A DNA stretch of 64,000 nt from an uncultured Planctomycetaceae bacterium (GTDB lineage Bacteria > Planctomycetota > SZUA-567). The notes beneath the pieces were generated by a model. The model searched no databases. It was not told the DNA's origin and worked only from the letters and a program-made list of their open reading frames with translations. The stretch spans positions 13,329 to 77,328 of the forward strand of contig CAYWFP010000006.1 in the NCBI GenBank assembly GCA_964457365.1, read 5' to 3'. Below are positions 12,405 through 62,413 of this stretch, in pieces; within the stretch, counting starts at the first letter, position 1, and each line of letters opens with the position of its first letter. A program made the position numbers and the translations under genes.

Positions 12405-14228
<1,824 letters not shown>

Positions 14229-30498: not shown

Positions 30499-37755
<7,257 letters not shown>

Positions 37756-44020: not shown

Positions 44021-45435
44021 GACGTTCCTTTCCCGCTTCGGTGCAGCGCGGAGAGAGAACGCGCGGCCGCCTCGACGCTCTCGGTCGCCGGAACTCCCCG
44101 CCCGCGCAGATAGGCCAGGCCCGCGCGAACCGTCGACTCCGCGCCCCAGACGAGGTGAACCTGCGGCTGCGGATAGGTCGCGTGCAGCGCGACGAGTCCG
44201 GCGAGTTGTTTTTCCAGGTAGCCGTCCCAATACCAGTTGCACGTGACCAGGGCGTCGACGCCGGGATTCTCCAGCACCGCGCGCATGCACGCGTCGACGC
44301 GCGCCGGATCGGCCATCACCGCGGGGGTGATGTCGAGCGGGTTGGCGTGGCTGGCGAAGGGCGGGATCAGCGCGCGGATGTTCTCGCGCGCCGCGTCTTC
44401 AAGCGGCGGAAGTGTCAGACCGTGCACGACGAGCCGGTCGACCAGGTTCACTCCGACGCCGCCGAGAGTGGTGACGACGCCGACACCACTGCCGCGCAGC
44501 GGTCGCCCCGTGGCCATGACGGCGAGGGCCTCGACCAACTCGGATACGGTCTCGACGAGGATGACGCCGCGTTCAAGCAGCAGTTCCCGCAGCGCCGCCG
44601 CCTCGGCCGCATCGGCGCCGGTATGACGTCTGCACGCCTTCACGCCCGTGTCGCTGCGCCCGCCTTTGAGGAGGACGATCGGCTTGCCGACTTTCCACAG
44701 CGCGCTCAGTCCCGCGTCAAGCGCATTCGGGTCGGATGTGTTCTCCAGGTATGCACCCACGCGTGGCGTCTGCGGATCCTCCGCGTAATACGCCAGAAGT
44801 TCGCCGAAAGTCAGGTCGGCCTCGTTGCCGCTGCTGACCATGCGGCTATAGCCGACGCCGCGCGCGCCCAGTCCCTCGAAGACGCGGGCGCAGATGCCGC
44901 CGCTCTGGCCGACGAAGCTGAAGCTCTGCGGATAACTGAGGTGCGATTCGTCCAGCGGCTGCAGCAGGAGGAAGTTCGCCATCAATTTCGACGGCGTCGA
45001 GAGCACGCCCATGCAGTTGGGACCACAGAGAAGCAGACCGAACTCGCGTGCCGTTTGGCGCAGATTCTCTTCCAGCGCTTCGCCCGCCTCGCCCGCCTCG
45101 CCGTACCCGCTGGTCAGGACGATTACGGCTTTGACACCGGCCTGTGCGCAGTCCGCGAGGGTATTCGGCACCAGCGGCGGCGGCAGGGCGATGATCGCGA
45201 GTTCCGGCGATTCGGGAAGATCCGCGAGCGACTTGTAGCAGCGGCGGTTCAGGATCTCGTCGTACTTGGGATTGACCGGGTAGATCCCGCCCGGAAAGCC
45301 CGCGCGTTTCAACGCCAGCACCGGCTGGCCGCTGGGCTTGAAGGGATCCGCGGAGGCGCCGACGACCGCCACGGCATTGGGCGCGAAGAGCGCCCGGAGA
45401 GCCGTCCGGCGATGAGCGGAGAGGACGGCGCTCAT
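44017..45435 (-). CDS. Acyl-CoA synthetase (NDP-forming) alpha-subunit-like protein (CoA-binding plus succinyl-CoA-synthetase-like domains), no beta/ATP-grasp partner
   Basis: AVVGASADPFKPSG CoA-binding Rossmann start and the ACD-alpha architecture (about 473 aa). ATGA overlaps on both sides. Confidence 0.7.
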   Translation of the reverse strand: MSAVLSAHRRTALRALFAPNAVAVVGASADPFKPSGQPVLALKRAGFPGGIYPVNPKYDEILNRRCYKSLADLPESPELAIIALPPPLVPNTLADCAQAGVKAVIVLTSGYGEAGEAGEALEENLRQTAREFGLLLCGPNCMGVLSTPSKLMANFLLLQPLDESHLSYPQSFSFVGQSGGICARVFEGLGARGVGYSRMVSSGNEADLTFGELLAYYAEDPQTPRVGAYLENTSDPNALDAGLSALWKVGKPIVLLKGGRSDTGVKACRRHTGADAAEAAALRELLLERGVILVETVSELVEALAVMATGRPLRGSGVGVVTTLGGVGVNLVDRLVVHGLTLPPLEDAARENIRALIPPFASHANPLDITPAVMADPARVDACMRAVLENPGVDALVTCNWYWDGYLEKQLAGLVALHATYPQPQVHLVWGAESTVRAGLAYLRGRGVPATESVEAAARSLSALHRSGKGTS

Positions 45436-46046
45436 GAGGTGGCGAGCAGTCGTCGGCCGGCTTCGAAGGCGCCCCGGTTCAACTCGCGCAGCTTGGGCTT
45501 GAGGACCAGGGGCAATGCTTCCAGATAACGCCCGGCCGGCAGATCCAGCGCGCCGCACGCGGCCAACGCGCCGAGCATGACCACGTTGGTCGCCTTGGCG
45601 TTGCCGGTCTCCTGCGCGGCCTTGACCGCCGGCAGCAGCTTCGTCGCGGGAGCGAGTGTCGAGAGCGCTTCGGCGATAGCGTCCACCGCAGGATAGGTCG
45701 CCTTGCCGCTGAGGACGGCGATGGGGTAGATCGGCCGGTCGCTGGCGAGAACCGTGGTCTCCGGATTGCCGTAGTCGGCCAGCACGCGCAACGTCTCCAG
45801 GGGTTCGAGCCCGACGATGACGTTGGCCTTGCCGCGCGGGATGAGCGGCCCCGTGCGCAGCGTCGGATGCAGGCGGACGTGGCTCATCACCGCGCCGCCG
45901 CGTTGACTGGCGCCGAAGGTCTCGCCGACGCTGACCTGGTAACCCGCCGCCACGGCCGCGGTCGCCAGCAGGCGCGAGGCGAGGACGTTGCCCTGGCCGC
46001 CGACGCCGGTGATGATGACGTTGAGGGGATCCGTAAGCGCGATCAT
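45432..46046 (-). CDS. iorB: Indolepyruvate:ferredoxin oxidoreductase beta subunit
   Basis: IITGVGGQGNVLASRLL motif, 204 aa; its ATG overlaps the iorA stop (ATGA). Confidence 0.8.
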   Translation of the reverse strand: MIALTDPLNVIITGVGGQGNVLASRLLATAAVAAGYQVSVGETFGASQRGGAVMSHVRLHPTLRTGPLIPRGKANVIVGLEPLETLRVLADYGNPETTVLASDRPIYPIAVLSGKATYPAVDAIAEALSTLAPATKLLPAVKAAQETGNAKATNVVMLGALAACGALDLPAGRYLEALPLVLKPKLRELNRGAFEAGRRLLATS

Positions 46047-47965
46047 GCGCCGCCCTCCGGCACGAGCTCGGCTGCGGCGATGGCGCCGGCCGGGCAGAGT
46101 TGCGCGCAGACGCCGCAGCCGTTGCATAGCGTCTCGTCGATCCGCGCCTTGTTCGTCGCGTCGTCCCAGACGGTACCGGGGCAGGCGAATTTTCGCGAGC
46201 AGAGCCCGCAGCCGGCGCAGCGTTCGGGATCGACGCGCAGAACGGTCTTGGTTTTCTCGCGCGCGGCTTGCAACGCGCACGGTTGCCGCAGGATCAGGAC
46301 GCGCGGTCCGGTCTGCTGCAACAGGTCGTAGACGGCCGTCTCGGTCGCCTGCAGGTCGAACGGATCGCGCACGGTGACCGGCAGTCCGATGCCTTCAAGG
46401 AGCGACTCCATCCCCACCCGCGCGGCGTCGACACCGCTGGCGCTGGTCGGCAATCCCGGGTGCGGCTGGTGTCCGGTCATGGCGGTGGTGTGGTTATCCA
46501 GAACGACCAGCAGGACGTCGGCGTTGAGGTGTTTGGCCTCGACGAAGGCCGGGAGGCCCGCGTGGTAGAACGTGCTGTCGCCCAGCACCGCCACCACCGG
46601 ACGCTTGAAATCGAACCGCCCGAGCCGTCCGAGTCCCGTGGCCATGCCGACGCCCGCGCCCATGCAATGTACCGAGCGCAGCACGCCGTAGCCTGTCTTA
46701 CCGAGCGCGAGGGTATAACAGCCGATGTCGCCCAAAACGATAGCGCCGCGCCCGTCTCGATCGACCGCACGGTACATGGCCCAGAAGCCGGCCCGGTGAC
46801 CGCAGCCGGCGCAGAAGGTATGTTCGCGCTTGGGCATCTCCTGATCGAGCAGCTTCTCCGCCGCGGCGGTATCGGTGAATCGTCTCGTCGCGCGCTCGCC
46901 GCCGAAGACGCTCTGGATCGCGTTTATCACCAGATCCGGATCCATCTCGCCCACGCCCGGGCCGTGCGGGCCCGCGACCGTGCCGTCCATTTTGCCGCGG
47001 AAGCGGGTCATGCCGATTTCGCTCATATGCAGCGCCGTCCATGCCATGACGCTCTCTTCGACGAATCCGGCGGTCTCTTCGACAAAGACCACCTCCGCCG
47101 CCGGCGCGAGCGCCTTCGCGAGCAATTCGTCCGGCAGGGGGAAGCTTGTCCCGAGCCGCAGCAGGCCGACCTCGCCGCTGAGGCCCAGCAGGCGGATCGC
47201 CTCGGCCGCGTGCAGGGCACAGACGCCGGTGGCGATGACCAGCTTCTTCACCCCTTCGGGGCCGGCGTAAACGTTGAACGGCGACTGCTCGTGCAGTCCC
47301 TTGACCGCCGCGAGCCGTTTCTTTACAGCGGCGTGAAACATGCCCAGCGTCAGAAAGCGCTCCTCCGGGCCGATATCGGCCTTCCGCTCGCGCGGCGGCA
47401 ACTCGCCCAGGGTGACGTTCCCGGAGCCATGGCAGATGCGCGTGGTGAGGCGCACCGCCACCGGCAGGCCGATTTTTTCGGAAACGTCGAAAGCCGCGCG
47501 CGTCATCTCCTTGGCGTCGTGCACGGTGGCGGCTTCCCAGACGGGGATTTCGGCGGCCTTGAGAAACGCGCGGCAGTCCTCCTCCTTGACGCCCGAATGC
47601 GCGCCGCAGTCGTCGCCGACGACGATGACCATGCCGGCCTTGACGCCGGTGTAGGCCAGGGCGGTCAGAAAGTCGAGCGTGACGTTGAGGCCGTCGGGCT
47701 TCATCGAGACGAGCGCGCGCAAACCCGCCAGACTCGCGCCGGCAGCCGCCTCCATCGCCACGATCTCGTTGATCGACCATTCCGCGACGATGCCCGCCTC
47801 TTCCGCAACCGCGGCGAGCGAGCCCATGATTTCCACCGTCGGCGAGCCCGGATACGACGCGGCCATCTGCGCGGCGCCTTCGAGCACGCCGCGCGCCGCC
47901 GCCTCGTTGCCGTTGAGGAGAAGCGCGCCCCCGGGGTCGTCGCGCAGGATCAAGTGGTCGCTCAT
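46043..47965 (-). CDS. iorA: Indolepyruvate:ferredoxin oxidoreductase alpha subunit (TPP-binding, two 4Fe-4S ferredoxin motifs)
   Basis: Start MSDHLILRDD at 47965 (ATGA overlap with upstream gene). TPP motif GDIGCYTLA...GDSTFYHAG. Ferredoxin motifs CAGCGLCSRKFACP and CNGCGVCAQLCP. Confidence 0.85.
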   Translation of the reverse strand: MSDHLILRDDPGGALLLNGNEAAARGVLEGAAQMAASYPGSPTVEIMGSLAAVAEEAGIVAEWSINEIVAMEAAAGASLAGLRALVSMKPDGLNVTLDFLTALAYTGVKAGMVIVVGDDCGAHSGVKEEDCRAFLKAAEIPVWEAATVHDAKEMTRAAFDVSEKIGLPVAVRLTTRICHGSGNVTLGELPPRERKADIGPEERFLTLGMFHAAVKKRLAAVKGLHEQSPFNVYAGPEGVKKLVIATGVCALHAAEAIRLLGLSGEVGLLRLGTSFPLPDELLAKALAPAAEVVFVEETAGFVEESVMAWTALHMSEIGMTRFRGKMDGTVAGPHGPGVGEMDPDLVINAIQSVFGGERATRRFTDTAAAEKLLDQEMPKREHTFCAGCGHRAGFWAMYRAVDRDGRGAIVLGDIGCYTLALGKTGYGVLRSVHCMGAGVGMATGLGRLGRFDFKRPVVAVLGDSTFYHAGLPAFVEAKHLNADVLLVVLDNHTTAMTGHQPHPGLPTSASGVDAARVGMESLLEGIGLPVTVRDPFDLQATETAVYDLLQQTGPRVLILRQPCALQAAREKTKTVLRVDPERCAGCGLCSRKFACPGTVWDDATNKARIDETLCNGCGVCAQLCPAGAIAAAELVPEGGA

Positions 47966-49152
47966 GCGTTCACCTCGTCGATGTTTTTCAGGAGCGCGCG
48001 CAGGTTCTCTTCCGTGTCCTGCCATCCGCGGCTCTCGCTCATCCTCTTGACCTTGGCCATCAGGGCCTCGGCCTGTTCGTTCGTGAGTTCCGCACCCAGC
48101 TCCTTCGCGCGCGCGAAAAACGCGGCCCGACCGCTGTGCTTGCCCAGGACCAGGCGCACGCTTCCCGCGCCGACGAGCTCGGGCGCGTACGGCAGGTACG
48201 TGGTCGGATTTTTCAGCAAGCCGTCCTGGTGGATGCCGGCCTCGGTGGCGAAGATGTTGGCGCCGGCGACGGGCTTGGTCGGCGAGAGCGGCACGCCGGC
48301 CTCTTCGCTGACCAGGCGCACGAGCGGGACGAGCTCGTTCAGTTTTATCGGCACGCTCCGGCCGAGGCGTTCGCGCTGCAGATGCGCCGCCAGCGCCACT
48401 TCTTCCAAGGCGGCGTTGCCGGCGCGCTCGCCGAGACCGCCGACGGTGCATTGCACGATCGCCGCGCCCGCGCGCACGCCCGCGAGGCTGTTGGCCACCG
48501 CCATCCCCAGGTCGTTATGGAAATGCACGGCCAGGTACGCCTTGGCCAGTTCCGGAAGTTCCGTCCACAAGGTCTTGAGATTCTCGATCACCTGGTCCGG
48601 CGCGAGAACGCCGACGGTGTCGGTATAGCCGATGGTGGTCGCGCCGGCCTGCAAGGCCGCGCGACAGACCTCGACCAGATACGGCATCTCGGTCCGGCTG
48701 GCATCCTCCGCGCCGAAGGCGACCACGCCGAAGCGCTCCCGGGCGTAGCCGACGCTGGCGCGGACGCGGTCGATCAGTTCGCTCTCGCTCAAGCGTAGCT
48801 TCTGCTCGCGGTGCACGGTGCTCGTGGCGATGAAGAGGCTGACGCCGCAGCGGCGACGGTCGATGCCCTCGAAGGCGGTGCAGGCCGCGTCGATGTCGCG
48901 CTCCACGGCGCGGCAGAGCGCGGTGACCATCGTCTTCGGCAGCGCCTGTGCGACCGCCCGCACGGATTCCACCTCGCCCGGACCGCTGGCGGGAAAGCCC
49001 GCCTCGATGGAGAAGATGCCGGCCTCGGCCAGTGCCACGGCGATGCGCACCTTCTGCTCGGCGGTCAACGCCACGCCCGGCATCTGCTCGCCGTCGCGGA
49101 GCGTCGTGTCGCTGAAGACGATAGGCGGTGCATCGGTCTGCTGCTGTGTCAT
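47962..49152 (-). CDS. LeuA/NifV/CimA-family 2-oxoacid:acetyl-CoA condensing enzyme (DRE-TIM metallolyase, short form without regulatory domain)
   Basis: FSDTTLRDGEQ N-terminal motif and the HFHNDLG metal-binding motif; 396 aa. First gene of the minus-strand operon. Confidence 0.8.
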   Translation of the reverse strand: MTQQQTDAPPIVFSDTTLRDGEQMPGVALTAEQKVRIAVALAEAGIFSIEAGFPASGPGEVESVRAVAQALPKTMVTALCRAVERDIDAACTAFEGIDRRRCGVSLFIATSTVHREQKLRLSESELIDRVRASVGYARERFGVVAFGAEDASRTEMPYLVEVCRAALQAGATTIGYTDTVGVLAPDQVIENLKTLWTELPELAKAYLAVHFHNDLGMAVANSLAGVRAGAAIVQCTVGGLGERAGNAALEEVALAAHLQRERLGRSVPIKLNELVPLVRLVSEEAGVPLSPTKPVAGANIFATEAGIHQDGLLKNPTTYLPYAPELVGAGSVRLVLGKHSGRAAFFARAKELGAELTNEQAEALMAKVKRMSESRGWQDTEENLRALLKNIDEVNA

Positions 49153-49267
49153 CGAAGCCCTTTCCGTGCAGACCATATCCGATTTTCACCACGCCCTCAA
49201 CCGTCTTTTCGGTCAAATCCGATGAAAGGGGACGGCTGCGGCGTTTTCGCTCTCTTGACAGAACTTC

Positions 49268-50995
49268 ATGCTCTTTCTAGACTTCCCACGGATTGCGGGC
49301 TCGATTGGCGGGCAGGTCACTTACTGGGTAATCCCGGAGATTTTTTTCATGCCTCCTCTGGCCCGCTCGGCTTATCTGGAATTGCTGCGCGAGGAGATCG
49401 GCGACCGGCTCTGGCCGTTGATGCTGCTCTCGGCCTTCTCGGGAATCGCCAGCGGCGTGATCGTGACATTGATTACCTCGATCACCGAGACCGATATCCA
49501 CGGTTGGGCCATGCTCCGCTTCCTGCTGCTCTTCGTCATGGTCGCGCTGGCGTCGCTGGAGTTGTCGCGCCAGGCGTTGCTGCGGGTGAACCGGGAGATC
49601 GAGCGCCTCGTCCACCGCATCCGCACGCGCGTGGCCGACCGTATCCGCCACGCGGAACTCCGAGACCTGGAGCGGCTGGACCTGGCGCGCATCTACGTCA
49701 CCACCGCCGAGAGCACCGAGAACCTGACCAAGGCGTCAATGCCGGTCTTCAAGAGCATCGGCGCGCTGGTGCTCATCGCCTACTGCCTGGTGCAGATCGG
49801 CTTGACAAGCACGGTGGCGCTGGCGCTGGTCCTGGGCAGCTTTCTCGGCGCGAGCCTCCTGTACCTGTATATCGAGAAATACGCCTACGAATACATCCGC
49901 GAAGCGTACGTGGCGGAGTACCGGTTCTTCAAACTCATGCGTGAACTCGCTCGCGGCTTCAAGGAACTCCGGCTCAACCGCGCCCGCGACGCGGACATTC
50001 ATGCGGACCTCGAATCGCAGGCCGACCGGGTCGAGGCGCGGAAAATGCGCGCGCACCGTCTCGTCGCCTGGCTCTACAGCTACACCGATCTCTTCTTCTT
50101 CCTCACACTGGGGCTGCTGATCTTTCTGTTGCCGTTGCTGCACGCCTGGACCTCGCGGCAGTTGGCCGACCTGATCGCCATCCTGCTTTTTCTCGGCGGC
50201 GGCGTGGCGCAGGTGGTGCTCAGCGTCCACCAGATCGCCCAGGCCAACGTGGCGGTGCAGCAACTGCGGGAGATGGAGACCGGGCTGCGTCAATGCGTCG
50301 TGCCGGACACCCCTCAGGGAGCGCGCCCGCTACGGGAGCTGACGTTGAAGAAGGCGGTCTTCTCCCATCGCGACGAAGAAGGCGGAGAACTATACACCGT
50401 CGGTCCGGTCTCCTTGACCATCCGCCCGGGAGAAGTGTATTTTCTCGTCGGCGGTAACGGCAGCGGCAAATCCACGTTGCTGAAGATCATCGCCGGCCTG
50501 TACGCGCCGGAGGACGGCGAGATTCTCCTCAACGGCGAGGCGGTCGTCCGCGAAAACCGGCAGGACTATCGTGAACTCGTCAGCGCCGTCTTTACCGACT
50601 TCCATCTCTTCGACCGTCTGCTGGGATGGGAGGAAACGTCGCCGGAACGGGTGAACGCGCTGCTGGAGGAGTTGGGGCTGGCGAGCAAGGTCTCGTTCGA
50701 GAACGGCGGCTTCAGCACGCTGCAGCTCAGTACCGGACAGCGCAAGCGGCTGGCGCTGGCGGTGGCGCTCCTGGAGGACCGGCCGCTCCTGCTGCTCGAC
50801 GAGGTCGCCGCGGACCAGGATCCGTACTGGCGCGAGGAGTTCTATACGCGGATCGTGCCCAAACTGAAAGCACGGGGCAAGGCCGTGGTCGTGATCGGGC
50901 ATCACGATCGGTATTTCGAGACCGGCGACATGTTGTGGCGCATGGATTACGGGGAACTGGTCGAACAGCGCCCCGCGCGCTCCACGGAGGCATGA
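49268..50995 (+). CDS. ABC half-transporter, cyclic-peptide/siderophore exporter (SyrD/YojI) family, TMD-NBD fusion
   Basis: N-terminal 6-TM domain. NBD with Walker A GGNGSGKST, the signature variant LSTGQRKRLA, and Walker B LLLLDE. An alternative start lies at 49349. Confidence 0.85.
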   Translation: MLFLDFPRIAGSIGGQVTYWVIPEIFFMPPLARSAYLELLREEIGDRLWPLMLLSAFSGIASGVIVTLITSITETDIHGWAMLRFLLLFVMVALASLELSRQALLRVNREIERLVHRIRTRVADRIRHAELRDLERLDLARIYVTTAESTENLTKASMPVFKSIGALVLIAYCLVQIGLTSTVALALVLGSFLGASLLYLYIEKYAYEYIREAYVAEYRFFKLMRELARGFKELRLNRARDADIHADLESQADRVEARKMRAHRLVAWLYSYTDLFFFLTLGLLIFLLPLLHAWTSRQLADLIAILLFLGGGVAQVVLSVHQIAQANVAVQQLREMETGLRQCVVPDTPQGARPLRELTLKKAVFSHRDEEGGELYTVGPVSLTIRPGEVYFLVGGNGSGKSTLLKIIAGLYAPEDGEILLNGEAVVRENRQDYRELVSAVFTDFHLFDRLLGWEETSPERVNALLEELGLASKVSFENGGFSTLQLSTGQRKRLALAVALLEDRPLLLLDEVAADQDPYWREEFYTRIVPKLKARGKAVVVIGHHDRYFETGDMLWRMDYGELVEQRPARSTEA

Positions 50996-52119
50996 TGAAC
51001 CGTCCGCGCGTCCTGCTCTATTGCCACAACGCCGTCGGCCTCGGCCACGTGATGCGGACGCTGCGGATCGCGCGCGCGCTGATCGGGCACGACTGCGCGG
51101 TGAAGCTGCTGACCGGGTGCCGCTGGCTCGACGGAGTCGAGACTCCTGCCGGCGTCGAGATCGACCAACTCCCAGCGGTACGCTTTGACGGCGTCCGCTT
51201 CGTCGCCGCCGAAGGCGATGGGGACGTCTTCGCGCGGCGCGGCGAGCGCATCCTGCAGGTGCTGCACGCGTGGCGGCCGCAGGTCGTTCTGGCGGATCAT
51301 CTGGCGCTCGGACTCGGCGGCGAATTGATCCCCGCGCTCCGGGACGAATCGATCCCCGCCACGTTCGTCTGGGGCGTGCGGGACATCTTCTACCATCCCG
51401 ATCGCCCGTCGCTGGCGCCGCGGCCGCCGCGCAACCCGACGATGCGCGCCGCGCTGGCCCGTTACGGCGCGAGCGTGGCCTACACCACCGCCGACTGGAT
51501 CGATCCCTTCGCCGCGATGAGCCATTATCCGCTTTCCACACGCCGGCATCACGTCGGCGTGATCGTCGGCGACGAGCCGGCGGTGAAGCCGGAGACGCCG
51601 CCGCGCATCGTCTGCCTCGCCGGCAGCGGCGGCAGCAGCGAGACGCATACGCGCCTCTGGTTCGAGGCGCTGGCAGGCATGAGCCGCGGCGTTTTTCGCA
51701 CGCGCATGGTCGTCGGCCCGTTCGGCGATCTGGAGAATACCCGCGCACGCGGCGAGGAGCTCGACGTGGAAGTGGTTCCGCAGATGCCGGCCGAAGCGGC
51801 GGTGGCCGACGCGCATGTCGTGCTCTCGCAGGCGGGGTACAACACCGCCTACGCCCTGACGCGCACGCCCTGTCCGCTGGTGTTCCTGCCGGCGGCCAAC
51901 GACGGGGCCGAACAGACGTACCGCGCCGAACGGATGCGCACGCTCGACCGGGTCTGGACGGTGGACCCGGAGAGCCCGGATGCGGTCGCGGACTTGCGTC
52001 AAGCGTTGACCGAGGCGCTGAACGCCGCTGTGGCGCCGCGGACGTTGCCGTTCGTTACCGACGGCGCGACAAATGCGGCAGCGCTGTTGACGGCGTGGGC
52101 GCGGGAGGCGACGGCATGA
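50992..52119 (+). CDS. GT-B fold glycosyltransferase (GT1/GT28-like)
   Basis: Start MMNRPRV overlaps the upstream stop (ATGA). The N-terminal RVLLYCHNAVGLGHVMRTLRIARAL is typical of the MGT/MurG-like GT-B N-domain; 375 aa. Confidence 0.7.
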   Translation: MMNRPRVLLYCHNAVGLGHVMRTLRIARALIGHDCAVKLLTGCRWLDGVETPAGVEIDQLPAVRFDGVRFVAAEGDGDVFARRGERILQVLHAWRPQVVLADHLALGLGGELIPALRDESIPATFVWGVRDIFYHPDRPSLAPRPPRNPTMRAALARYGASVAYTTADWIDPFAAMSHYPLSTRRHHVGVIVGDEPAVKPETPPRIVCLAGSGGSSETHTRLWFEALAGMSRGVFRTRMVVGPFGDLENTRARGEELDVEVVPQMPAEAAVADAHVVLSQAGYNTAYALTRTPCPLVFLPAANDGAEQTYRAERMRTLDRVWTVDPESPDAVADLRQALTEALNAAVAPRTLPFVTDGATNAAALLTAWAREATA

Positions 52120-52895
52120 AACAACTGCTGATCAACGCCGACGATCTGGGATTGAGCGCCGGAGCCTCACGCGGCATCGCGCATGCAATGACCGAGGGCG
52201 TGGTCGTCTCCTGCTCGGCCATGGTTGCCGTCCCCGGCGCGGTCGAGACCATCGCCCGTTACGCATCGTGTCTTCGCGGCCGGATCGGACTGCATCTGCA
52301 ACTGACCGCCGGCACGCCGTGCCTGCCGCCGGAAGAGGTGCCGACACTTGTCAAGGAAAACAGCGTTTTTCCACCGCACTGGCGCGAGTTGGGTCGCCCG
52401 GATCCGGACGAGATCCGCCGCGAGTGGCGCGCGCAACTGACGCGGCTGCGGGCGGCGGGCGTGGAACCGACGCACCTGGACTGTCATCACAACCTGCACC
52501 TCGATCCGCGCATCCTTCCGCTGGCGATCGAGTTGGGGCAGGAGTTGGGCGTGCGTGTGCGCAGCGGCGGGCGGGCGTTGGCGGCTTCTCTGCGCAAGGC
52601 CGGCATCGTCTGCACCGATCACTGCATCGTCGGTTGGGGGAAACGGGCGATCAGCCGCACCGATCTGGTCGAGACGGTCGATGCGGTATTCTCCACACGG
52701 CAAGCGCCGCGAACGGTCGAACTGGTCTGCCATCCAGGCGAGCTCGACGACGACCTGCGCGCACGCGCCGGCCAGGTCGAGACGCGGCCGGCGGAACTGG
52801 CGGTGTTGACCGATCCGGCAACGTCTTCGGCACTCGAGGCCGCGGGCATCGAGCTCTTGACCGCGCCGCCGACGCTCTCGGGGGAGCGATCCTGA
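52116..52895 (+). CDS. YdjC/ChbG/HpnK-family carbohydrate deacetylase
   Basis: MKQLLINADDLGLSAGASRGI start plus the THLDCHHNLH motif. ATGA overlap with the glycosyltransferase gene. Confidence 0.8.
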   Translation: MKQLLINADDLGLSAGASRGIAHAMTEGVVVSCSAMVAVPGAVETIARYASCLRGRIGLHLQLTAGTPCLPPEEVPTLVKENSVFPPHWRELGRPDPDEIRREWRAQLTRLRAAGVEPTHLDCHHNLHLDPRILPLAIELGQELGVRVRSGGRALAASLRKAGIVCTDHCIVGWGKRAISRTDLVETVDAVFSTRQAPRTVELVCHPGELDDDLRARAGQVETRPAELAVLTDPATSSALEAAGIELLTAPPTLSGERS

Positions 52896-54562
52896 TGCAT
52901 ACGCCCGAGCGCCATCCATTTCTCAAGATGCTGTACACCGAGGTCGGCCCCCATACGCTCTGGGTGATGGTCGCCTCGCTGTTCTGCGGCCTCGCCAACA
53001 GCGCGGTGGTGATCTGCATCAACAACGCCGCCAAGTCGCTGGGCCAACCACTGCGGCTGGTGATCCTCTTCGGCTCGTTTCTGCTGGCCATGCTCGTCTT
53101 CGTCATCGGACGCAATTTCGTCCTGCGCCGCAGCACCGCGTACGTGGAGCTGATGATCCGGCGCATGCGCATGCGCATGGCCGAGGAACTGCGTGTGGCC
53201 GATCCGCTGACACTCGAACAGTTGTCCGCGGGCGAGGTTTTCTCCGTGCTGACCAAGTGCACGCAACTGGTCTCGCGCTCGACGATCCCGCTCTTCCTGG
53301 CCATGACCTCGGCGGTGATGCTCGTCGGTTGTCTCGTCTACATGTGCTTTCTCTCGCTCGCGGCGGCGATCGCGACGGTGGCGGTCTTCCTCGTCTGCGC
53401 GCGTTACAACCAACTCACCCAGGTCGAGGTGGACGCGCTGCTGGAGAAGAGCATCCGCAGCGAGAACGCTTTCTTCGGCAAGCTGCAGGATCTCTTGGAC
53501 GGCATCAAGGAAGTCAAGCTCAGTCGCGCGCGGAGCAACGCCCTCTACCGCGAGGTACTGCTGCCGCTGGCCGAGGAGGCCCGGACGCATCAATACGAAG
53601 CGCGCATCCCGGTCATCGAGAACCACGTCTTCGGTCATGCATTCTTCTATATCATCGTCGCGGCGGTGCTCTTTCTGCTGCCGGCGCTGCCCGGGGGAAC
53701 GCCGCGGCTGATGGCGGAGCTGATCGCGTTGCTGCTCTTCATGCGCTCCTCGCTGGAGGAGGTTGTCGGCGCCATTCCGATTCTGGGCGAGGCGGACGTG
53801 GCCATGCGCAATCTCTTCGCGTTGCGGGACCGGCTGGCGAAGCCCGAGCCCGAGCCGAACCCGGTGCAGATCCGTCGCCTGGAGCGCATCGAGCACGTCG
53901 AGTCGGTCGCGGTGCGCGGCCTCTCCTTCCGCTACCCCAGCCCAGACGGCCGGTCGACCTTCGGCATCGGGCCGCTGGACCTGGAGGTGCGCGCCGGCGA
54001 GATCACCCTCGTTCACGGCGCCAACGGGGCGGGCAAGTCCACGCTCCTGAAGGTGCTGACCGGGCTGTACGAACCCGACGACGGCGAGATCTATCTCAAC
54101 GGCCAGCCGGTCAATCCCGGCAACCGCCGCCGGTATCGCGAGTTCTTCAGCGCCGTCTTCAGCGACTTCCACGTCTTCCGCCGGCTCTACGGTCTGGCCG
54201 ACGCCGCCGACGCCCGGGTGCTGGATCTGCTGGAGGATCTGGAACTGGCCGCACGCACCGACGTGGTCGACCGGGCCTTCACCAACGTGGACCTGAGCAC
54301 GGGGCAGCGCAAGCGACTGGCGTTCCTGGTGGCGCTGCTGGAGGAGCGGCCTGTCTGCGTCTTCGACGAGGTGGCGGCGGACCAGGATCCGGAGTTCCGC
54401 GCGCGCTTCTACCGTGAGATCCTGCCGCGGCTCAAGGCGGAAGGGAAAGCGATCCTGCTGGTCAGCCACGACAAGGACTTCTTCGACGTCGCCGACCGCA
54501 TGTACGCGATGGACTACGGCACGCTGCAATGCGAGCGTGATCGGGAGCGAAGGGGTTTTTGA
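52895..54562 (+). CDS. ABC half-transporter, SyrD/YojI-type (second copy), TMD-NBD fusion
   Basis: Start MHTPERHPF overlaps the upstream stop (TGATG). Walker A GANGAGKST, LSTGQRKRLA, Walker B VCVFDE. Paralog of 49268..50995. Confidence 0.85.
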   Translation: MHTPERHPFLKMLYTEVGPHTLWVMVASLFCGLANSAVVICINNAAKSLGQPLRLVILFGSFLLAMLVFVIGRNFVLRRSTAYVELMIRRMRMRMAEELRVADPLTLEQLSAGEVFSVLTKCTQLVSRSTIPLFLAMTSAVMLVGCLVYMCFLSLAAAIATVAVFLVCARYNQLTQVEVDALLEKSIRSENAFFGKLQDLLDGIKEVKLSRARSNALYREVLLPLAEEARTHQYEARIPVIENHVFGHAFFYIIVAAVLFLLPALPGGTPRLMAELIALLLFMRSSLEEVVGAIPILGEADVAMRNLFALRDRLAKPEPEPNPVQIRRLERIEHVESVAVRGLSFRYPSPDGRSTFGIGPLDLEVRAGEITLVHGANGAGKSTLLKVLTGLYEPDDGEIYLNGQPVNPGNRRRYREFFSAVFSDFHVFRRLYGLADAADARVLDLLEDLELAARTDVVDRAFTNVDLSTGQRKRLAFLVALLEERPVCVFDEVAADQDPEFRARFYREILPRLKAEGKAILLVSHDKDFFDVADRMYAMDYGTLQCERDRERRGF

Positions 54563-54629: not shown

Positions 54630-56018
54630 ATGAGCGAAAACGAGAAGACCTCCGATGCGCCAGACGGGGCGAAAAAGCCCCCGGAGAAGAAGAAGCCGTC
54701 CATAAGCATGAGACGGGTGACGCATTACTACTTTCTGATCGCGCTCTTTCTGGTCCTGCTTGTCTTGACGTATCTCGCCCCGCGCATCTTCATCACCGTC
54801 CCGCCCGGGCATCTGGGCGTCCACTTCCAGCGGTTCCGCGGCGGCACCCAGACCGCGCCGGACGAGTTGTTGCAGGAAGGGATCCATTACATCATCCCGG
54901 TGAACATGGTCTACCTGTACGATTGCCGCGTGCAGGAGGAATTCGCCGAGGTAAACGTGCTCTGCAAGGACGGGCTCAACGTCCGGGTGCGCGTCAGTTT
55001 CTGGTTTCGGCCGATGCGCCAAGACGTGGGGCGTCTGCACAAGCACGTCGGCCCGAAATATATCGAGAAGCTCGTACGTCCCGCGATTTACGCCACCGTA
55101 CGCCGCATTCTGAGCCAGTACTCGCCCGTGCAGTTGTACTCGGTGCCCGAGAGCCAGGAGATGACGATCGAGATTCAAGCCGCCGGCCAGTCCGAACTCG
55201 GACCGCGGCATGTCGAGCTGGTCAGCGTGCTGATCCACAGCGTCCACCTGCCGCCGATTCTCAACACCGCTATCGAGCGCAAGCTGCGCCAGGAACAGGA
55301 GATCCTGGAATACGCCTTCCGCGTGGAGAAGGAGAAGGAGGAGAAGGAGCGCAAACTCATCGAGGCCCAGGGCATCGCGCAGTTCCACGAAACCGTCCAG
55401 CGCGGCCTGACCAAGGACGTACTCCGTCTGCGCGGCATTCTGGCTACGCTCAATCTCTCCCGCAGCGAGAATGCCAAGATCGTCATCTTCGGCAAACCCG
55501 ACGGCTTCGGACTGCCGCTGATCATGGGGGACCTGGATGGCGGCGGAGAACACGGCAAGCCCGCGGACGTCCCGGCGACACGCCTAGACGCGCTTGATCC
55601 CTCCCTGGATCTCAGTCTGCGCACCGACCCCGATCCGGCCGCCGGTACGCACGGCGTCGACATGAGCCTTCGCCCGGCGCCGCTGGATCCGAAGCTCGAG
55701 TTCGGCCATGAGAAGGAGATGAAGGCGAATAAGCGGGAAGCCCCGGGTGGCGGTTTCGAAAAACAACCGAGCCTCTACGAAGAGGAATCGCCCAACGCGC
55801 CGTCGCTCGCGCCCAAATCGCCGACCGACGATAGAAAGCCGACCGCGAATCAGTCGACCTCGGAGAGCGCGCGACCCCCGGCCGAGACGCCCGCACGTCG
55901 CTACCCCGCCGCGGGGATCAGCCCGCAGGAGCACTACCGTCGCAAAGCCCGGTCCGAGAAGGCGGATACGGATATCGCCCCGCCGCCGAAGACCGCCGGA
56001 CATAAGGAGGCCCAATGA
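54630..56018 (+). CDS. SPFH/band-7 (prohibitin/HflKC-like) membrane protein with long disordered C-terminal tail
   Basis: N-terminal TM, then the SPFH core (HYIIPVNMVYLYDCRVQEEFAEVNVLCKDGLNVRV...) and a coiled-coil. The C-terminal about 150 aa are Pro/Asp/Lys-rich. Confidence 0.75.
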   Translation: MSENEKTSDAPDGAKKPPEKKKPSISMRRVTHYYFLIALFLVLLVLTYLAPRIFITVPPGHLGVHFQRFRGGTQTAPDELLQEGIHYIIPVNMVYLYDCRVQEEFAEVNVLCKDGLNVRVRVSFWFRPMRQDVGRLHKHVGPKYIEKLVRPAIYATVRRILSQYSPVQLYSVPESQEMTIEIQAAGQSELGPRHVELVSVLIHSVHLPPILNTAIERKLRQEQEILEYAFRVEKEKEEKERKLIEAQGIAQFHETVQRGLTKDVLRLRGILATLNLSRSENAKIVIFGKPDGFGLPLIMGDLDGGGEHGKPADVPATRLDALDPSLDLSLRTDPDPAAGTHGVDMSLRPAPLDPKLEFGHEKEMKANKREAPGGGFEKQPSLYEEESPNAPSLAPKSPTDDRKPTANQSTSESARPPAETPARRYPAAGISPQEHYRRKARSEKADTDIAPPPKTAGHKEAQ

Positions 56019-56224
56019 TTCCTGTCGTCGCTATCGTCGGGTACCTGGTGCTCTGCCTCTTGACCGGATTGATCGCCGAGCACAAGATGATCCTGAACTG
56101 GCGCCCGCAGATCGGACAATACCGGTTCCGAATCGGTTTCTGGCTGGCGACGTTCTGCGCGGTGTTCTTCACGCCGATCGTCGTCTTCGTGGTGCTTCTG
56201 GTGATTCCGACGCGAACGCGATGA
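56015..56224 (+). CDS. Small two-TM membrane protein coupled to the SPFH gene
   Basis: AAGGAGG RBS; the ATG overlaps the SPFH stop (ATGA). 69 aa, hydrophobic. Confidence 0.55.
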   Translation: MIPVVAIVGYLVLCLLTGLIAEHKMILNWRPQIGQYRFRIGFWLATFCAVFFTPIVVFVVLLVIPTRTR

Positions 56225-56246
56225 ATTTCACGTGGACATTCGGTTG

Positions 56247-56274
56247 TTGACAGCGCAAGGCGTCTACCTACAAT
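56247..56274 (+). promoter_or_regulatory. Sigma70-like promoter TTGACA-16-TACAAT
   Basis: Consensus -35 and near-consensus -10 sit 58 nt upstream of the ATG at 56332. Confidence 0.4.
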
Positions 56275-56331
56275 AATTCCGGGCTGAATCTTTGTTTTCC
56301 GAACGAACGACCTGAAGAAAAGGGGAAGGCG

Positions 56332-56970
56332 ATGGCCAAGAAAAAGAAGACGAGCGAAGAGACGACCTGTGCGGAAGCGGATTCGGCATGCTCACCCGAG
56401 CCGACCGCGGAAGACCAGGCCCTGCTCATCGTGCATAACCACATGCTCGGCGCCATGGCTGCCGCGGCCGTGCCCGTGCCGCTCTTCGACCTGGCGGCCG
56501 TGACGGCAATTCAGTTCAGAATGCTCGCCTGCCTGGCCGAGCATTACGACGTACCCTTCGAAAGCCAAATCACCAAGAGCACCATCGGCGCGGTGATCGG
56601 AGGCGTCGCCGTACCGGAACTCGGTCGCGTCGCGGGCCAGTACGCCGTGCGGAACGTTCCCGCGTCGTTCGTGCGTTCGCTGCCAGCGAGCATCAGCAAG
56701 TTCGTCCCCGGCCTGGGTCTCGTCGCTGGCGTGCTGGCCATGCCGGTGGTCACCGGCGCGAGCACCTATGCGCTGGGCAGAGTTTTCATCCGGCACTTCG
56801 CCTCGGGCGGCACCTTCCTGGACTTCAACCCGCAGTCGACACGCGACTATTTCTCCCGGATGTATAACCAGGGCCACACCTACGCCAAGGGGAAAGGCAA
56901 GCAGTTCATGAACGCGGTGCGCGGGAAGAAGGAACCGGCCGAGGAGGAAGCAGCCGCGTCCCCGGCATAA
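56332..56970 (+). CDS. Hypothetical protein (DUF697/YcjF-like?)
   Basis: 212 aa with an acidic N-terminus, a hydrophobic core and a Lys-rich C-terminus. The family assignment is uncertain. Confidence 0.55.
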   Translation: MAKKKKTSEETTCAEADSACSPEPTAEDQALLIVHNHMLGAMAAAAVPVPLFDLAAVTAIQFRMLACLAEHYDVPFESQITKSTIGAVIGGVAVPELGRVAGQYAVRNVPASFVRSLPASISKFVPGLGLVAGVLAMPVVTGASTYALGRVFIRHFASGGTFLDFNPQSTRDYFSRMYNQGHTYAKGKGKQFMNAVRGKKEPAEEEAAASPA

Positions 56971-57001
56971 CGGTCTTTCCGCGGAGTCGACAACAATTCC
57001 A

Positions 57002-57034
57002 GCGCGCACGGCCAAGGCCGTGCGCGTGTTTTTT
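57002..57034 (+). terminator. Rho-independent terminator
   Basis: GC hairpin gcgcacggcc-aa-ggccgtgcgc followed by gtgtttttt, located 32 nt after the stop at 56970. Confidence 0.6.
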
Positions 57035-57157
57035 GATCTACGGACTTGTTCAAAAATAAAATCTTGAGAGTACCGTATTCACGCTATGAAGCCAAGCGTA
57101 ATCCTTCGGCTCTTGTAATATCGATTTTTGGGCGGATGAATTTTGGGGGGGCAGTTC

Positions 57158-57270
57158 CGGGGACTCCGGTTCCGGGGACAGTTTACTTAATTCGGAGGAA
57201 TCTACTAGAAAAGGACTCCGGTTCCGGGGACAGTTTACTTAATTCGGAGGAATCTACTAGAAAAGGGTGG
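57158..57270. repeat. Tandem direct repeat, about 52-bp unit x2 (ctccggttccggggacagtttacttaattcggaggaatctactagaaaagg) plus partial third copy
   Basis: Two perfect adjacent copies in an AT-rich non-coding region. Confidence 0.85.
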
Positions 57271-57271
57271 C

Positions 57272-57439
57272 AAACGCTGCGGGGGCAGGTTGCGTGGGCA
57301 CTTCCAGTATTATGGAGTGAGCGAGAACACCGTCGGCATAACCCGTTTCTATCGGTTCGACCTGCGGGCGACCCGGAAGTGGCTCAACCGGCGCAGTCAG
57401 AAGGGGCGGATGAGTTGGGCGCGATTTATGGCCTACTAA
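57272..57439 (+). pseudogene. Remnant resembling C-terminus of group II intron/retron-type reverse transcriptase-maturase
   Basis: The frame reads GHFQYYGVSENTVGITRFYRFDLRATRKWLNRRSQKGRMSWARFMAY*. This resembles the maturase C-terminal pattern GWxNYY...F..D.....RRL..W..RR..K....W. No N-terminal RT domain is present. Confidence 0.3.
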
Positions 57440-57592
57440 TCGCGCCATCAAATACATTGCGCACGCGGTGGCCGAAGAAGCAGTAAATCAGGCATTATCG
57501 ACGGGTTGCCTGCAAGGTATTTTTAGGCGCGGTTAGTAATTTCCTCCTATCGGACAACGAAGGCAGGAATGGATCACAAGCGATGAGGAGTG

Positions 57593-58042
57593 TTATGCTT
57601 TTTCACCCGTCTCATCGTCGCGGTTGTGCCATGTCTGGTCGAAAGGATTGTAGATCGAGACGCCAGCGGGAAGCATGTCCTTGACGGTACGCGTGGCGAC
57701 GGTCAGACCGTGCGCGATCGCGGTGGCGGCAATCAGCGAATCGATGGCGGGAAGCGGATGCCCCCTGGATTCCGTCTCGGCGCATAATGCCGACCATGCG
57801 TCGGTCTCCAGTTTGCCGATCGGAAGGATGCGGCCGGCGAAGCGACGCTTCATCTCGTCGATCCACGCCATTACTTCGTCGCGGCGCGCAGGATCGTCGA
57901 GTTTGCGCGCGCCCTTCTCCAACTCGCCGACAGTCAGGATGCTGAAATAGGGATCGATCCCATTCAGCCAGTCGATAACGGTTTGGTCGGGGCGCTGGCG
58001 GCGCTGTTCCGAGATGACGCAGGTGTCGACGAAAAACTTCAC
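57593..58042 (-). CDS. vapC: PIN-domain toxin VapC
   Basis: MKFFVDTCVISE start with a conserved acidic D and the ...IDSLIAATAIAHGLTVATRTV C-terminal region; 149 aa. Overlaps the antitoxin gene by 4 nt. Confidence 0.8.
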   Translation of the reverse strand: MKFFVDTCVISEQRRQRPDQTVIDWLNGIDPYFSILTVGELEKGARKLDDPARRDEVMAWIDEMKRRFAGRILPIGKLETDAWSALCAETESRGHPLPAIDSLIAATAIAHGLTVATRTVKDMLPAGVSIYNPFDQTWHNRDDETGEKA

Positions 58043-58269
58043 AAATCGACCTCGCGCGGCAGAGACTTGTCACGCTTCACGATGAAATCGTCGTCGAAGG
58101 GAGCGGTTGCCAGAAAATCGCCGAAGCGGATTTCATCCGGGGATTGCGGATCGGGGAGGATGACCGACAGCGTCACCTCGCCCTCGGGATAATCCCCGGG
58201 GACGTCGATATCGATGTGCGCCTTGTGGTCGCGACCGATAATCGCCTTGGCCTGCAGGGTCCGCGTCAT
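58039..58269 (-). CDS. VapB-family antitoxin (putative)
   Basis: 76-aa ORF immediately upstream of vapC with a 4-nt overlap. Confidence 0.6.
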   Translation of the reverse strand: MTRTLQAKAIIGRDHKAHIDIDVPGDYPEGEVTLSVILPDPQSPDEIRFGDFLATAPFDDDFIVKRDKSLPREVDL

Positions 58270-58544
58270 GGTTCTTTTCTCCGAAAGTTACGTAGAAAAT
58301 TATACTTCAAGACGGCTCATTCGTCAATCCATGAACATGCGTTCGGTCTTTTAAGATGCGTGGAAAGCGATGGGTAATGTTTTCATTAGAGATGTCCGTT
58401 CAGGCGCAAGGGCACAATGACGGCAAGCCATGCTCCGGCTCTACAGGCCCCTCCGGCCCCGGCAAGCTTTGCAGTAAGCCGAGTTGACTCCATGTCATCA
58501 ATGCCCGTCCCGCAAGATTCTACGCCACGGTCCATCAACTTCGT

Positions 58545-58584
58545 AAAGCACAGGTCGTCGGTTCGAGTCCGACAGTTGGCTCCA
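58545..58584 (+). tRNA. tRNA 3'-half fragment (T-arm GTCGG-TTCGAGT-CCGAC, acceptor 3' strand AGTTGGC, discriminator T, CCA); no 5' half, probable att remnant
   Basis: Canonical T-loop TTCGAGT with a 5-bp stem (58557-58573) followed by a 7-nt acceptor strand and CCA. No complementary 5' acceptor strand lies within 120 nt upstream. Confidence 0.55.
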
Positions 58585-58955
58585 CGACACGCCATGCCCC
58601 GGGACGCTTGACTAGCGCCTCGGGGCTTTTCTTACGCCTGTTCAGCGACGGGTTCCGCACGATATCCCCCGGGGAGGGGTGGCGGCAGGATCGGCTATTC
58701 TCGGCTCATCAGGCAACTATAGAAGGACTGCTGTGACAGTAAGCGCGGCGGTAAGCGGGTACGTGTTGGAAGAAAATTTATAGGAAATCCAGGAAGAGAC
58801 CTGCTTCAGATGCCATAACTGCATGTATTTTTGACGTTGGCTTGAATTCGGCTAAAGGAACCCTGCGGGATTTCCTAAAGCGGCCTGCGTCGGATGCGTC
58901 ATATGCAAGACAGCTTGCGCATTGGCTCTTGTGGCATTAAATGAAAGCCGTTGGA

Positions 58956-60707: not shown

Positions 60708-60750
60708 CTCGTTTCCCCTCTCTCGCTATCGCAATGCTTTCCGTTCCGAC

Positions 60751-61119
60751 CTACGGCTTACTCCACTCATGCCAGTCGCCGCCGGTAGCATTTCTCCAAA
60801 GAATATAGAACGGATCATTCTCCGAGGCGATATCGACCGCACGCTGGAAATCGTCGTAGGATTCGGGAAAGTGATCCATCTCCTCGAGCCATTGCCAGAA
60901 GTCATCGGGCGTGCCGACACCCGTCTTCTCTGAAAGCCATTCGTGATAATTCTCGTCGCGCGGTTGTTCGTGATCCATGTACTCGTTGTGCGCCTGCATC
61001 ACGCGCGCGGTGTCCGAAATTGCCGATAAAAGCAGGTCGATCACTACATCGGAACTGTTCACGCTCGCGGGAGCATTGGCCAGGTGTCCGGCAAGCGAAG
61101 CCATTTCGGTCAGTATCAT
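60751..61119 (-). CDS. Hypothetical acidic protein (122 aa)
   Basis: Start MILTEMASLAG. Trp/Asp/Glu-rich (DDFWQWLEEMDHFPESYDDF), with no recognisable domain. Confidence 0.45.
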   Translation of the reverse strand: MILTEMASLAGHLANAPASVNSSDVVIDLLLSAISDTARVMQAHNEYMDHEQPRDENYHEWLSEKTGVGTPDDFWQWLEEMDHFPESYDDFQRAVDIASENDPFYILWRNATGGDWHEWSKP

Positions 61120-62240: not shown

Positions 62241-62413
62241 CGGTTCCCCTCTGCCCAATTGACTTACATCAATCGTAGTCGAGTCGGCGCAATCGGGCAA
62301 GTCACTTTCGGCCTCGTCGGCTGCAGTATGGCTATCATCGGCCCAGCAATATGCGCGCCAGGCCGACAAGCAGAACAAACACATGACATTATTGCAGTTA
62401 CGATAGGCAATAG

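Follow-up and report, generated by a model that had tools for sequence, protein, structure and literature searches.

What would a glycosyltransferase (GT) and a predicted sugar deacetylase be doing between two exporter genes that sit back to back with the operon of a polyketide synthase (PKS)? This question arises at positions 49268-54562 of a stretch of DNA from an uncultured Planctomycetaceae bacterium (the whole stretch, 64 kb in length, is referred to here as the window), where four plus-strand genes encode a GT and a YdjC-family protein bracketed by two paralogous ATP-binding cassette (ABC) half-transporters. We propose, with a probability of roughly 55%, that these genes are the part of a secondary-lipid cluster, of two operons and roughly 25 kb, that supplies the sugar headgroup and exports the product. 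The four genes are as follows.

49268-50995, plus strand: ABC1, a half-transporter of the SyrD/PvdE/YojI family with a transmembrane domain followed by a nucleotide-binding domain (TMD-NBD), 575 aa.
50992-52119, plus strand: GT-B glycosyltransferase of the GT1/GT28 clan, 375 aa, the marker gene of a PKS-linked clade.
52116-52895, plus strand: YdjC-family, carbohydrate de-N-acetylase-like protein, 259 aa, cytoplasmic.
52895-54562, plus strand: ABC2, paralogue of ABC1 and likewise a TMD-NBD half-transporter, 555 aa.

The sequence-only reading of this locus had claimed that the four genes are coupled by ATGA and TGATG overlaps, and all three junctions, read directly, are as it described. ABC1 and the GT gene share a 4-nt ATGA overlap, which reads GGCATGATGAAC (...GGC ATGA TGAAC...), the GT and YdjC genes share another ATGA overlap of 4 nt, GGCATGAAA (...GGC ATGA AA...), and the YdjC gene runs into ABC2 through a one-base TGATG overlap, CTGATGCAT (...CC TGATG CAT...). 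The NCBI record starts the GT one codon later, at 50995, which gives a protein of 374 aa.

The evidence that carries our proposal comes from the comparison of related loci. We sampled the contigs of six GT relatives together with one genome per GTDB species and searched 90 loci with the window proteins, taking a score of at least about 120 bits to define a close GT relative and 10 kb as the distance for linkage. With the window counted, close GT relatives were found no farther than this from the same synthase, or from its partner protein, in 20 of 21 independent loci. This synthase has enoylreductase (ER), ketosynthase (KS), acyltransferase (AT), acyl carrier protein (ACP) and ketoreductase (KR) domains in the order ER-KS-AT-ACP-KR, and its partner joins an AT to a dehydratase (DH) domain. 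The sole unlinked locus is a 7-kb contig; among GT relatives of at least about 120 bits, the borderline case L023 is the only one without this linkage. Distant GT relatives had a PKS or YdjC neighbor in none of 65 cases. At least seven phyla are represented among the 21 loci (Thermodesulfobacteriota, Verrucomicrobiota, Acidobacteriota, Bacteroidota, Betaproteobacteria, Eremiobacterota/Xenobia and Riflebacteria), and the Bacteroidota loci include the complete isolate genome of Chitinophagaceae bacterium MMS25-I14 and a Bizionia assembly labelled "uncultured." Orthologues of the AT-DH protein adjoin the GT relatives in L001, L008, L011-L022 and L024; the gene order AT-DH, ACP, GT, YdjC is found in L001, L008 and L011, with stop/start overlaps in L001 and L008, and 12 of the 21 loci include a YdjC gene. 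Given that the GT clade travels with the synthase across phyla, this independent comparative evidence indicates that the GT probably acts on the synthase's product, and we hold it very probable that the plus-strand operon as a whole belongs to the PKS pathway. The earlier suggestion of a polar headgroup for the polyketide lipid gains independent support from the contrast between the close and the distant relatives.

The GT itself is a rare protein. It belongs to a distinct small clade, with 59 members at E <= 1e-30 among 1.84 billion cluster representatives, and its best non-self relative is 45% identical. The GT-B fold that had been assigned to it from the letters alone was corroborated by an AlphaFold model built with 41 homologues (pLDDT 94, pTM 0.92), which shows a classic GT-B fold of two Rossmann-like domains, and by Foldseek, whose best PDB matches were GT1 natural-product enzymes (OleI/OleD, CalG and YjiC) and MurG; GT1 and GT28 are not separable for this GT by fold search. 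A sequence profile of the family found MurG first (E = 4e-10), via its nucleotide-sugar-binding C-terminal domain, and the GT scored 21 bits against the MurG model TIGR01133, below the cut-off of 250, and is not a member. It had no Pfam match at E <= 0.01, and its homologues carry PF04101 (Glyco_tran_28_C). Residues His19 and Asp102, an AGYNT loop and an EQxxRA motif are invariant or nearly so, and we take them to be the His/Asp dyad and the donor-binding motifs of inverting GT1/GT28 enzymes, the whole clan being inverting. The GT thus shares with MurG and with GT1 natural-product and sterol GTs an N-terminal G-x-G-H loop and the C-terminal AGYNT and EQxxRA motifs, and the acceptors of those enzymes are lipophilic or lipid-linked, as we propose for the window GT. 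Unlike those enzymes, to which its identity is only 13-18%, it misses every Pfam GT model. Hydropathy revealed no convincing transmembrane (TM) helix in the protein. A DegT aminotransferase gene is found in 8 of the 21 loci, often paired with a GFO/IDH/MocA oxidoreductase gene, a pairing that presumably resembles the GnnA/GnnB or WbpB/WbpE route from UDP-N-acetylglucosamine (UDP-GlcNAc). Because the donor domain of the GT resembles that of MurG, a UDP-GlcNAc transferase, because a deacetylase gene adjoins the GT gene, and because these GnnA/GnnB-like genes occur in the sister clusters, an N-acetylhexosamine (HexNAc) is a plausible donor.

The third gene had been placed in the YdjC family, and this assignment is secure: the protein scores 185.7 bits against PF04794 (E = 1.9e-54; gathering threshold, 29.7), and its residues D9, D10, H60, D122, H124, H125, H128 and H206 do not vary among 7 cluster-linked orthologues. 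Its PDB relatives are EF_3048 (2i5i, E = 1e-26) and a chitooligosaccharide deacetylase (7vi8, E = 7e-22). Hydropathy gave a single weak peak at residues 21-47 and no convincing TM helix. The further description of the protein as HpnK-like did not hold, given that it reached only 106.2 bits against TIGR03473, for which the cut-off is 232.6, and aligned over residues 1-147 only, in the N-terminal half. The ChbG model NF002559 was missed as well (150.8 bits; cut-off, 227), although this score is higher than that for HpnK. Judged from these scores, "HpnK-like" is an analogy of chemistry and not a statement of membership, and we have dropped the label. The analogy remains instructive as a precedent: in the hopanoid pathway of HpnI, HpnK and HpnJ, GlcNAc is placed on the lipid and then de-N-acetylated by a YdjC-superfamily enzyme, with HpnI followed by HpnK leading to glucosaminyl-bacteriohopanetetrol (PMC12583986), and the window enzymes would follow the same sequence of steps. 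The two systems differ in that the window YdjC protein is not an HpnK equivalog, the window lipid would be derived from a polyketide or fatty acid, and no hopanoid (hpn, shc) genes were found among the open reading frames (ORFs) annotated in the window, where chitobiose or phosphotransferase system (PTS) genes were not found either. HpnI, moreover, is usually annotated as a family 2 enzyme of the GT-A type, whereas the window GT is GT-B. A carbohydrate esterase family 4 (CE4) deacetylase gene is present in three loci (L011, L020 and L024), and a methyltransferase gene co-occurs in six.

The exporters were likewise found to be what had been read from their motifs, two paralogous half-transporters of the SyrD/YojI/PvdE family. 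Both pass TIGR01194 (cyclic peptide export ABC transporter; SyrD/PvdE/YojI) over the whole protein, ABC1 with 329.0 bits and ABC2 with 340.1 bits against a curated cut-off of 286.2, and they are 34% identical to each other across 546 residues. The LSTGQ variant that had been taken to mark the family is its usual signature, occurring in 112 of 119 family homologues. ABC1 matches PF00005 (E = 3e-32), and ABC2 matches PF00664 and PF00005. A lack of TMD-NBD topology had been named as a finding that would defeat the idea; by hydropathy, both proteins have six TM helices N-terminal to a complete NBD. In ABC1, the TM peaks lie at residues 51-69, 81-104, 167-185 (two helices, TM3 and TM4 being merged), 275-293 and 302-320, followed by Walker A at 395, LSTGQ at 487, LLLLDE at 507 and the H-loop at 544; ABC2 has six TM peaks, Walker A at 375, LSTGQ at 467, CVFDE at 487 and SHD at 524. 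Both retain an intact Walker A, an intact Walker B (D-E, with the catalytic Glu) and the H-loop His. With their six TM helices, NBD, LSTGQ signature and DEVAADQD Walker B region, ABC1 and ABC2 are thus like SyrD, PvdE and YojI. They are unlike them in being two diverged paralogues that bracket sugar-tailoring genes with no nonribosomal peptide synthetase (NRPS) or peptide genes nearby, and in their predicted cargo, which would be a glycolipid where SyrD, PvdE and YojI handle lipopeptides, siderophores or microcin. No solved structure of a TIGR01194 member was found, and the best PDB matches of ABC2 were generic ABCB/MsbA exporters.

Membership in a lipopeptide and siderophore exporter family, which the sequence-only reading had noted, therefore stood, and the cargo context usual for that family did not: the annotated window ORFs yielded no NRPS domains, and the neighbors of ABC1 and ABC2 are the GT, YdjC and PKS genes. 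Given this lack of NRPS genes, the peptide or siderophore cargo typical of TIGR01194 proteins presumably does not apply here. The paired arrangement recurs in the metagenomic contig L010, which has the order ABC1 (partial)-GT-YdjC-ABC2-Band7-x-DUF697, as in the window. The upstream ABC fragment of L010 is nearer to ABC1 (60% versus 50%) and its downstream ABC protein is nearer to ABC2 (46% versus 34%). Because the two pair off in this way, the duplication of ABC1 and ABC2 is, on these identities, older than the split of the window and L010 lineages, whose GTs are ~45% identical, and both copies have been kept.

From these observations we infer the donor sugar, the acceptor, the fate of the amine, and the cargo and pairing of the ABC proteins in the following pathway. 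The minus-strand operon would build a long acyl or alkyl chain on the ER-KS-AT-ACP-KR synthase with the help of the AT-DH protein, which also carries a phosphopantetheinyl transferase (PPTase) domain, and of a free ACP, the starter possibly coming from the coupled genes for a LeuA-like protein, a 2-oxoacid:ferredoxin oxidoreductase and an acyl-CoA ligase. In the cytoplasm, the soluble GT-B enzyme would then attach a HexNAc to a hydroxyl, either on the lipid itself or on a sugar that the lipid already bears; the likeliest HexNAc is GlcNAc, donated by UDP-GlcNAc. The YdjC enzyme would next strip the N-acetyl group to leave a free amine, which may keep its positive charge or receive methyl groups from the methyltransferase of the cluster. 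Finally, the two SyrD-family half-transporters, made from the same mRNA and probably paired as an ABC1/ABC2 heterodimer in this scheme, would remove the finished amphiphile from the inner leaflet. The steps differ in how firmly we would defend them. HexNAc transfer followed by de-N-acetylation is the chemistry that we favor, with some reserve; over whether the ABC proteins export the cluster's product we are evenly divided; and that ABC1 and ABC2 act as a heterodimer is a tentative suggestion. Equally tentative is the fullest version of the proposal, by which the product would be a polyketide lipid of a new class, with an amino sugar (glucosaminyl, possibly N-methylated), and would in this lineage be flipped or secreted by a heterodimer of two SyrD-family half-transporters.

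Several observations weigh against this reading. YdjC is missing from 9 of the 21 loci, and deacetylation is thus not universal in the cluster family. The fold of the GT matches GT1 enzymes that use TDP-deoxysugars or UDP-glucose as well as it matches MurG, and the donor sugar is unreadable from sequence. No release domain (thioesterase, reductase or condensation) was recognized in the synthase, so that the structure of the acceptor is not given by sequence either. A second GT of the GT_PLOD type, encoded in the minus-strand operon, is a widely kept tailoring gene besides the GT-B gene (orthologues of 37-54% identity in 10 of 20 related loci, or 11 of 21 with the window) and could itself act on the lipid. 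On the side of export, the SyrD-type pair is present only in the window and L010, 2 of the 21 loci, and the closest relatives of ABC2 after these occur singly, one of them next to an NRPS and the other standing alone in an unrelated context; no further example of the paired arrangement was seen in the contexts of the nearest other ABC2 relatives. Heterodimeric ABC exporters often have one degenerate ATP site, and none was found in ABC1 or ABC2, both sites being canonical, so that a heterodimer is not demanded by the sequence.

These last points bear on an alternative in which ABC1 and ABC2 are two homodimers, or serve self-protection or general efflux in the manner of YojI, perhaps for a secreted, surfactant-like product, and are tied to the GT and YdjC genes through operon regulation only. 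We consider this unlikely. The lone ABC2 relatives and the canonical nucleotide-binding sites fit it, as does the description of the characterized SyrD, PvdE and YojI as single-gene exporters, and no ABC gene lies within 10 kb in 16 of the 21 related clusters. It is harder to square with the way in which both paralogues flank the GT-YdjC pair with overlapping codons and have been kept in two lineages whose GTs are about 45% identical, such equal co-translation being typical of obligate partners. Moreover, an MsbA-like ABC gene, unrelated to the SyrD type, replaces the pair in three loci (L001, L008 and L017), and its independent recruitment there suggests that the product has a real need of export.

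A second alternative concerns the order of the chemistry and not the exporters. By a logic like that of Nod factors or lipid A, the GT and YdjC proteins could make a glucosamine acceptor whose freed amine is N-acylated with the polyketide chain, the chain leaving its ACP, for example, via the AT of the AT-DH protein; the result would be an amide-linked sugar, exported by the ABC pair as Nod factors are by NodIJ. This would fit with the second AT domain in the partner protein, with a synthase that has no release domain of the thioesterase, reductase or condensation kind, and with the free ACP gene that lies directly 5' of the GT in L001, L008 and L011; in both NodB/NodA and LpxC/LpxD, it is established that N-acylation follows deacetylation. 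We nevertheless think it improbable, given that the window and the annotated sister loci yielded no NodA, LpxD or GNAT-type N-acyltransferase, that the nearest structural relatives of the GT add their sugars to hydroxyls, be it on lipophilic aglycones or on lipid-linked acceptors, and that the primary acceptor of the GT would be left unexplained. In the Nod system itself, NodC, NodB and NodA de-N-acetylate a GlcNAc-based glycan and join it to a lipid before export by NodIJ, and the window departs from it in more than the missing NodA-like acyltransferase: NodB is a CE4 enzyme and not a YdjC protein, the Nod acyl chain comes from the fatty-acid synthase (FAS) and not from a dedicated PKS, and NodIJ is a type V (ABC-2) transporter.

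That the plus-strand operon has nothing to do with the PKS, and combines chito-oligosaccharide or envelope-glycan processing with peptide export beside it by chance, is very improbable, since the facts that could be cited for it (a chitin disaccharide deacetylase as the best curated model of the YdjC protein, MurG as the best sequence match of the GT, and an ABC family named after peptide export) are met by wide misses of both the ChbG and MurG curated models, by a GT clade that lies beside the PKS in 20 of 21 loci of at least seven phyla when its distant relatives never do, and by the finding of no PTS, chitobiose or NRPS genes among the annotated window ORFs.

In logic, the closest known system to the one that we propose is the heterocyst glycolipid island, in which a PKS-like Hgl synthase is accompanied by the GT HglT and by HgdB/C and DevBCA exporters (PMC11804610; PMC13291983). 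Both have an iterative PKS/FAS-like synthase, a cluster GT for the sugar headgroup and cluster-linked ABC transporters; those of the heterocyst system deposit its product beyond the cytoplasmic membrane, whereas export in the window is predicted from the genes. The differences are several. The window has a single-KS megasynthase with an N-terminal ER plus an AT-DH-PPTase protein where Hgl is the multiprotein HglE/D/C/B, its GT falls in a distinct small clade, its deacetylase step has no Hgl counterpart, and its host, whose MnmG is nearest to that of Planctomycetota metagenome-assembled genomes (MAGs), is not cyanobacterial. The window exporters, finally, are SyrD-family TMD-NBD half-transporters and not of the DevBCA type.

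All components of the window cluster belong to known families, and their combination and the cluster family that it represents appear to be uncharacterized; no description of the family or its product was found in the literature searched, of which our coverage is incomplete. Structures are known for only a handful of PKS/FAS-like secondary lipids, such as the heterocyst glycolipids and the phenolic lipids of Azotobacter (PMC13291983, a 2026 survey). The family can now be defined by its ER-KS-AT-ACP-KR synthase, AT-DH partner, ACP, GT-B clade, YdjC or other amino-sugar tailoring, and GT_PLOD; its carriers are soil, sediment and marine bacteria of at least seven phyla, and its presence in the complete isolate genome of Chitinophagaceae bacterium MMS25-I14 puts the product within experimental reach. 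An envelope amino-glycolipid, if that is what the cluster makes, could represent a novel lipid of the membrane or cell surface and might serve as a biomarker, and such a glycolipid would be the first nonpeptide cargo for SyrD/PvdE-type exporters, whose substrate range would then be wider.

The synthase side of the cluster is a divergent minus-strand operon, whose genes are listed here in the direction of transcription, with the coordinates of each on the window.

47962-49176, minus strand: LeuA/homocitrate-synthase-like protein, the operon's first gene (Pfam/NCBIfam).
46043-47965, minus strand: IOR alpha, 2-oxoacid (indolepyruvate-type) ferredoxin oxidoreductase; ATGA overlap with the preceding gene.
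45432-46046, minus strand: IOR beta, beta subunit of the oxidoreductase; ATGA overlap with the preceding gene.
44017-45435, minus strand: ADP-forming acyl-CoA ligase alpha; ATGA overlap with the preceding gene.
43349-44020, minus strand: S-adenosylmethionine (SAM) methyltransferase; ATGA overlap with the preceding gene.
38990-43339, minus strand: AT-DH-PPTase protein, the synthase partner (PF00698, PF14765, PF01648), after a 9-nt gap.
38600-38911, minus strand: free-standing ACP of 103 aa with an LGFTSVD motif, after a 78-nt gap.
37851-38603, minus strand: GT_PLOD-type (GT-A) second glycosyltransferase (PF25342, E = 3e-11) with a DSRD (DxxD) motif; GTGA overlap.
30499-37755, minus strand: iterative type I synthase ER(NMO)-KS-AT-ACP-KR, 2418 aa (Pfam), after a gap of about 95 nt.
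29685-30488, minus strand: SDR/FabG-like reductase (PF13561, E = 3e-57), the operon's last gene, 10 nt after the PKS stop.

Judged from their domains, the synthase and its AT-DH-PPTase partner have between them all the activities that an iterative fatty-acid-like synthase needs. They are unlike the PfaA-type synthases of polyunsaturated fatty acids, given that the synthase scored 924 bits against the PfaA model TIGR02813, below the cut-off of 1010, and that it has a single KS and no partner protein that pairs a KS with a chain-length factor (KS-CLF). The passages searched in a 2011 catalogue of secondary-lipid synthases contain no mention of this single-KS architecture (PMC3098273). A methyltransferase of the DVU_1556 family is among the window genes. 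The set of LeuA-like, IOR alpha/beta and acyl-CoA ligase genes hints at a starter unit derived from a 2-oxoacid or at a Claisen-type release step. Among the 21 related loci, these genes were found in the window only, and a citrate-synthase-like gene is present instead in the Bacteroidota versions L016, L018 and L019. In L018 (MMS25-I14, CP197396.1; 4451-20642), the cluster, located at about 1,607,051-1,628,127 of CP197396.1, contains AT-DH, GT, YdjC, GFO/IDH/MocA, DegT and two methyltransferase genes together with the citrate-synthase-like gene, a GT_PLOD, a TauD dioxygenase and the PKS. Some soil versions have radical SAM/SPASM genes adjoining the GT or PKS (L006, 12300-13694; L009, 10529-11535); their likeness to HpnJ is superficial, as they belong to a different radical SAM subclass.

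Around the four plus-strand genes, the following features were found.

49255-49283, plus strand: promoter-like TTGACA-17-TAGACT in the divergent intergenic region, from a consensus scan, with 10 of 12 positions matching.
54630-56018, plus strand: Band 7/SPFH membrane protein (PF01145, E = 5e-27) with one N-terminal TM helix, 67 nt after ABC2.
56332-56970, plus strand: DUF697 membrane protein (PF05128).
57002-57027, plus strand: strong intrinsic-terminator-like hairpin at the end of the plus-strand block, with an 11-bp stem of which 9 pairs are G-C, followed by a T-run.

The start of ABC1 probably needs revision. No Shine-Dalgarno sequence precedes the annotated ATG at 49268, which the promoter-like site overlaps, while an in-frame ATG at 49349 has a GGAG 10 nt upstream and coincides with the start of the TIGR01194 profile and with that of ABC2. 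Because of the GGAG spacing and this agreement with the family profile and ABC2, translation probably begins at 49349 and yields 548 aa, in which case the public 575-aa protein is 27 residues too long. The promoter-like site is a weak match (the scan of 11 kb gave 6 sites versus 1.6 by chance); if it is real, the ATG at 49268 would lie outside the mRNA. The gap between ABC1 and the divergent minus-strand operon is 91 bp, or 172 bp with the start at 49349, and no meaningful repeat or operator-like palindrome was found in this intergenic region. The Band 7/SPFH and DUF697 genes may belong to the same transcription unit as ABC1, the GT, YdjC and ABC2; proteins of both families are also encoded downstream of ABC2 in the syntenic L010 (4764-7221), with identities of 52% and 57%.

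The window has a G+C content of 67%, and this value, the DVU_1556-family methyltransferase and the IOR genes could point to a Desulfovibrio-like host, a reading that we set aside in view of MnmG. MnmG, encoded at 12405-14228 on the plus strand, is 70% identical to its closest relative overall and 61-65% identical to those in the closest Planctomycetota MAGs. The nearest GT relatives in the scan of one genome per GTDB species, a set that did not include the window's own genome, belong to Thermodesulfobacteriota MAGs, with a best match of 44% identity. Because MnmG is nearest to Planctomycetota and the GT to Thermodesulfobacteriota, the cluster may have been acquired by horizontal transfer, MnmG being a single host marker. 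No Rfam families or tRNAs were found in the whole window.

Outside the cluster, two ORFs at 23549-25024 and 233-1438, both on the minus strand, have no Pfam match and are strongly coding-like, with a third-position G+C of 0.90 and 0.83, respectively. Beyond roughly 56 kb, the G+C content is about 0.56 up to the window end, compared with about 0.66-0.70 before, and this drop marks a compositional boundary just past the cluster; this low-G+C region (56000-64000) encodes a redoxin-domain protein (58956-60707, minus strand) and a PrsW-like protease (61119-62384, minus strand). Three unusual fusion proteins are also encoded elsewhere in the window: DUF116 joined to a polyprenyl synthetase (20347-22167, minus strand), a major facilitator superfamily (MFS) transporter joined to HEAT repeats (14290-16521, plus strand), and pentapeptide repeats joined to an ion-channel domain (17483-18541, plus strand).

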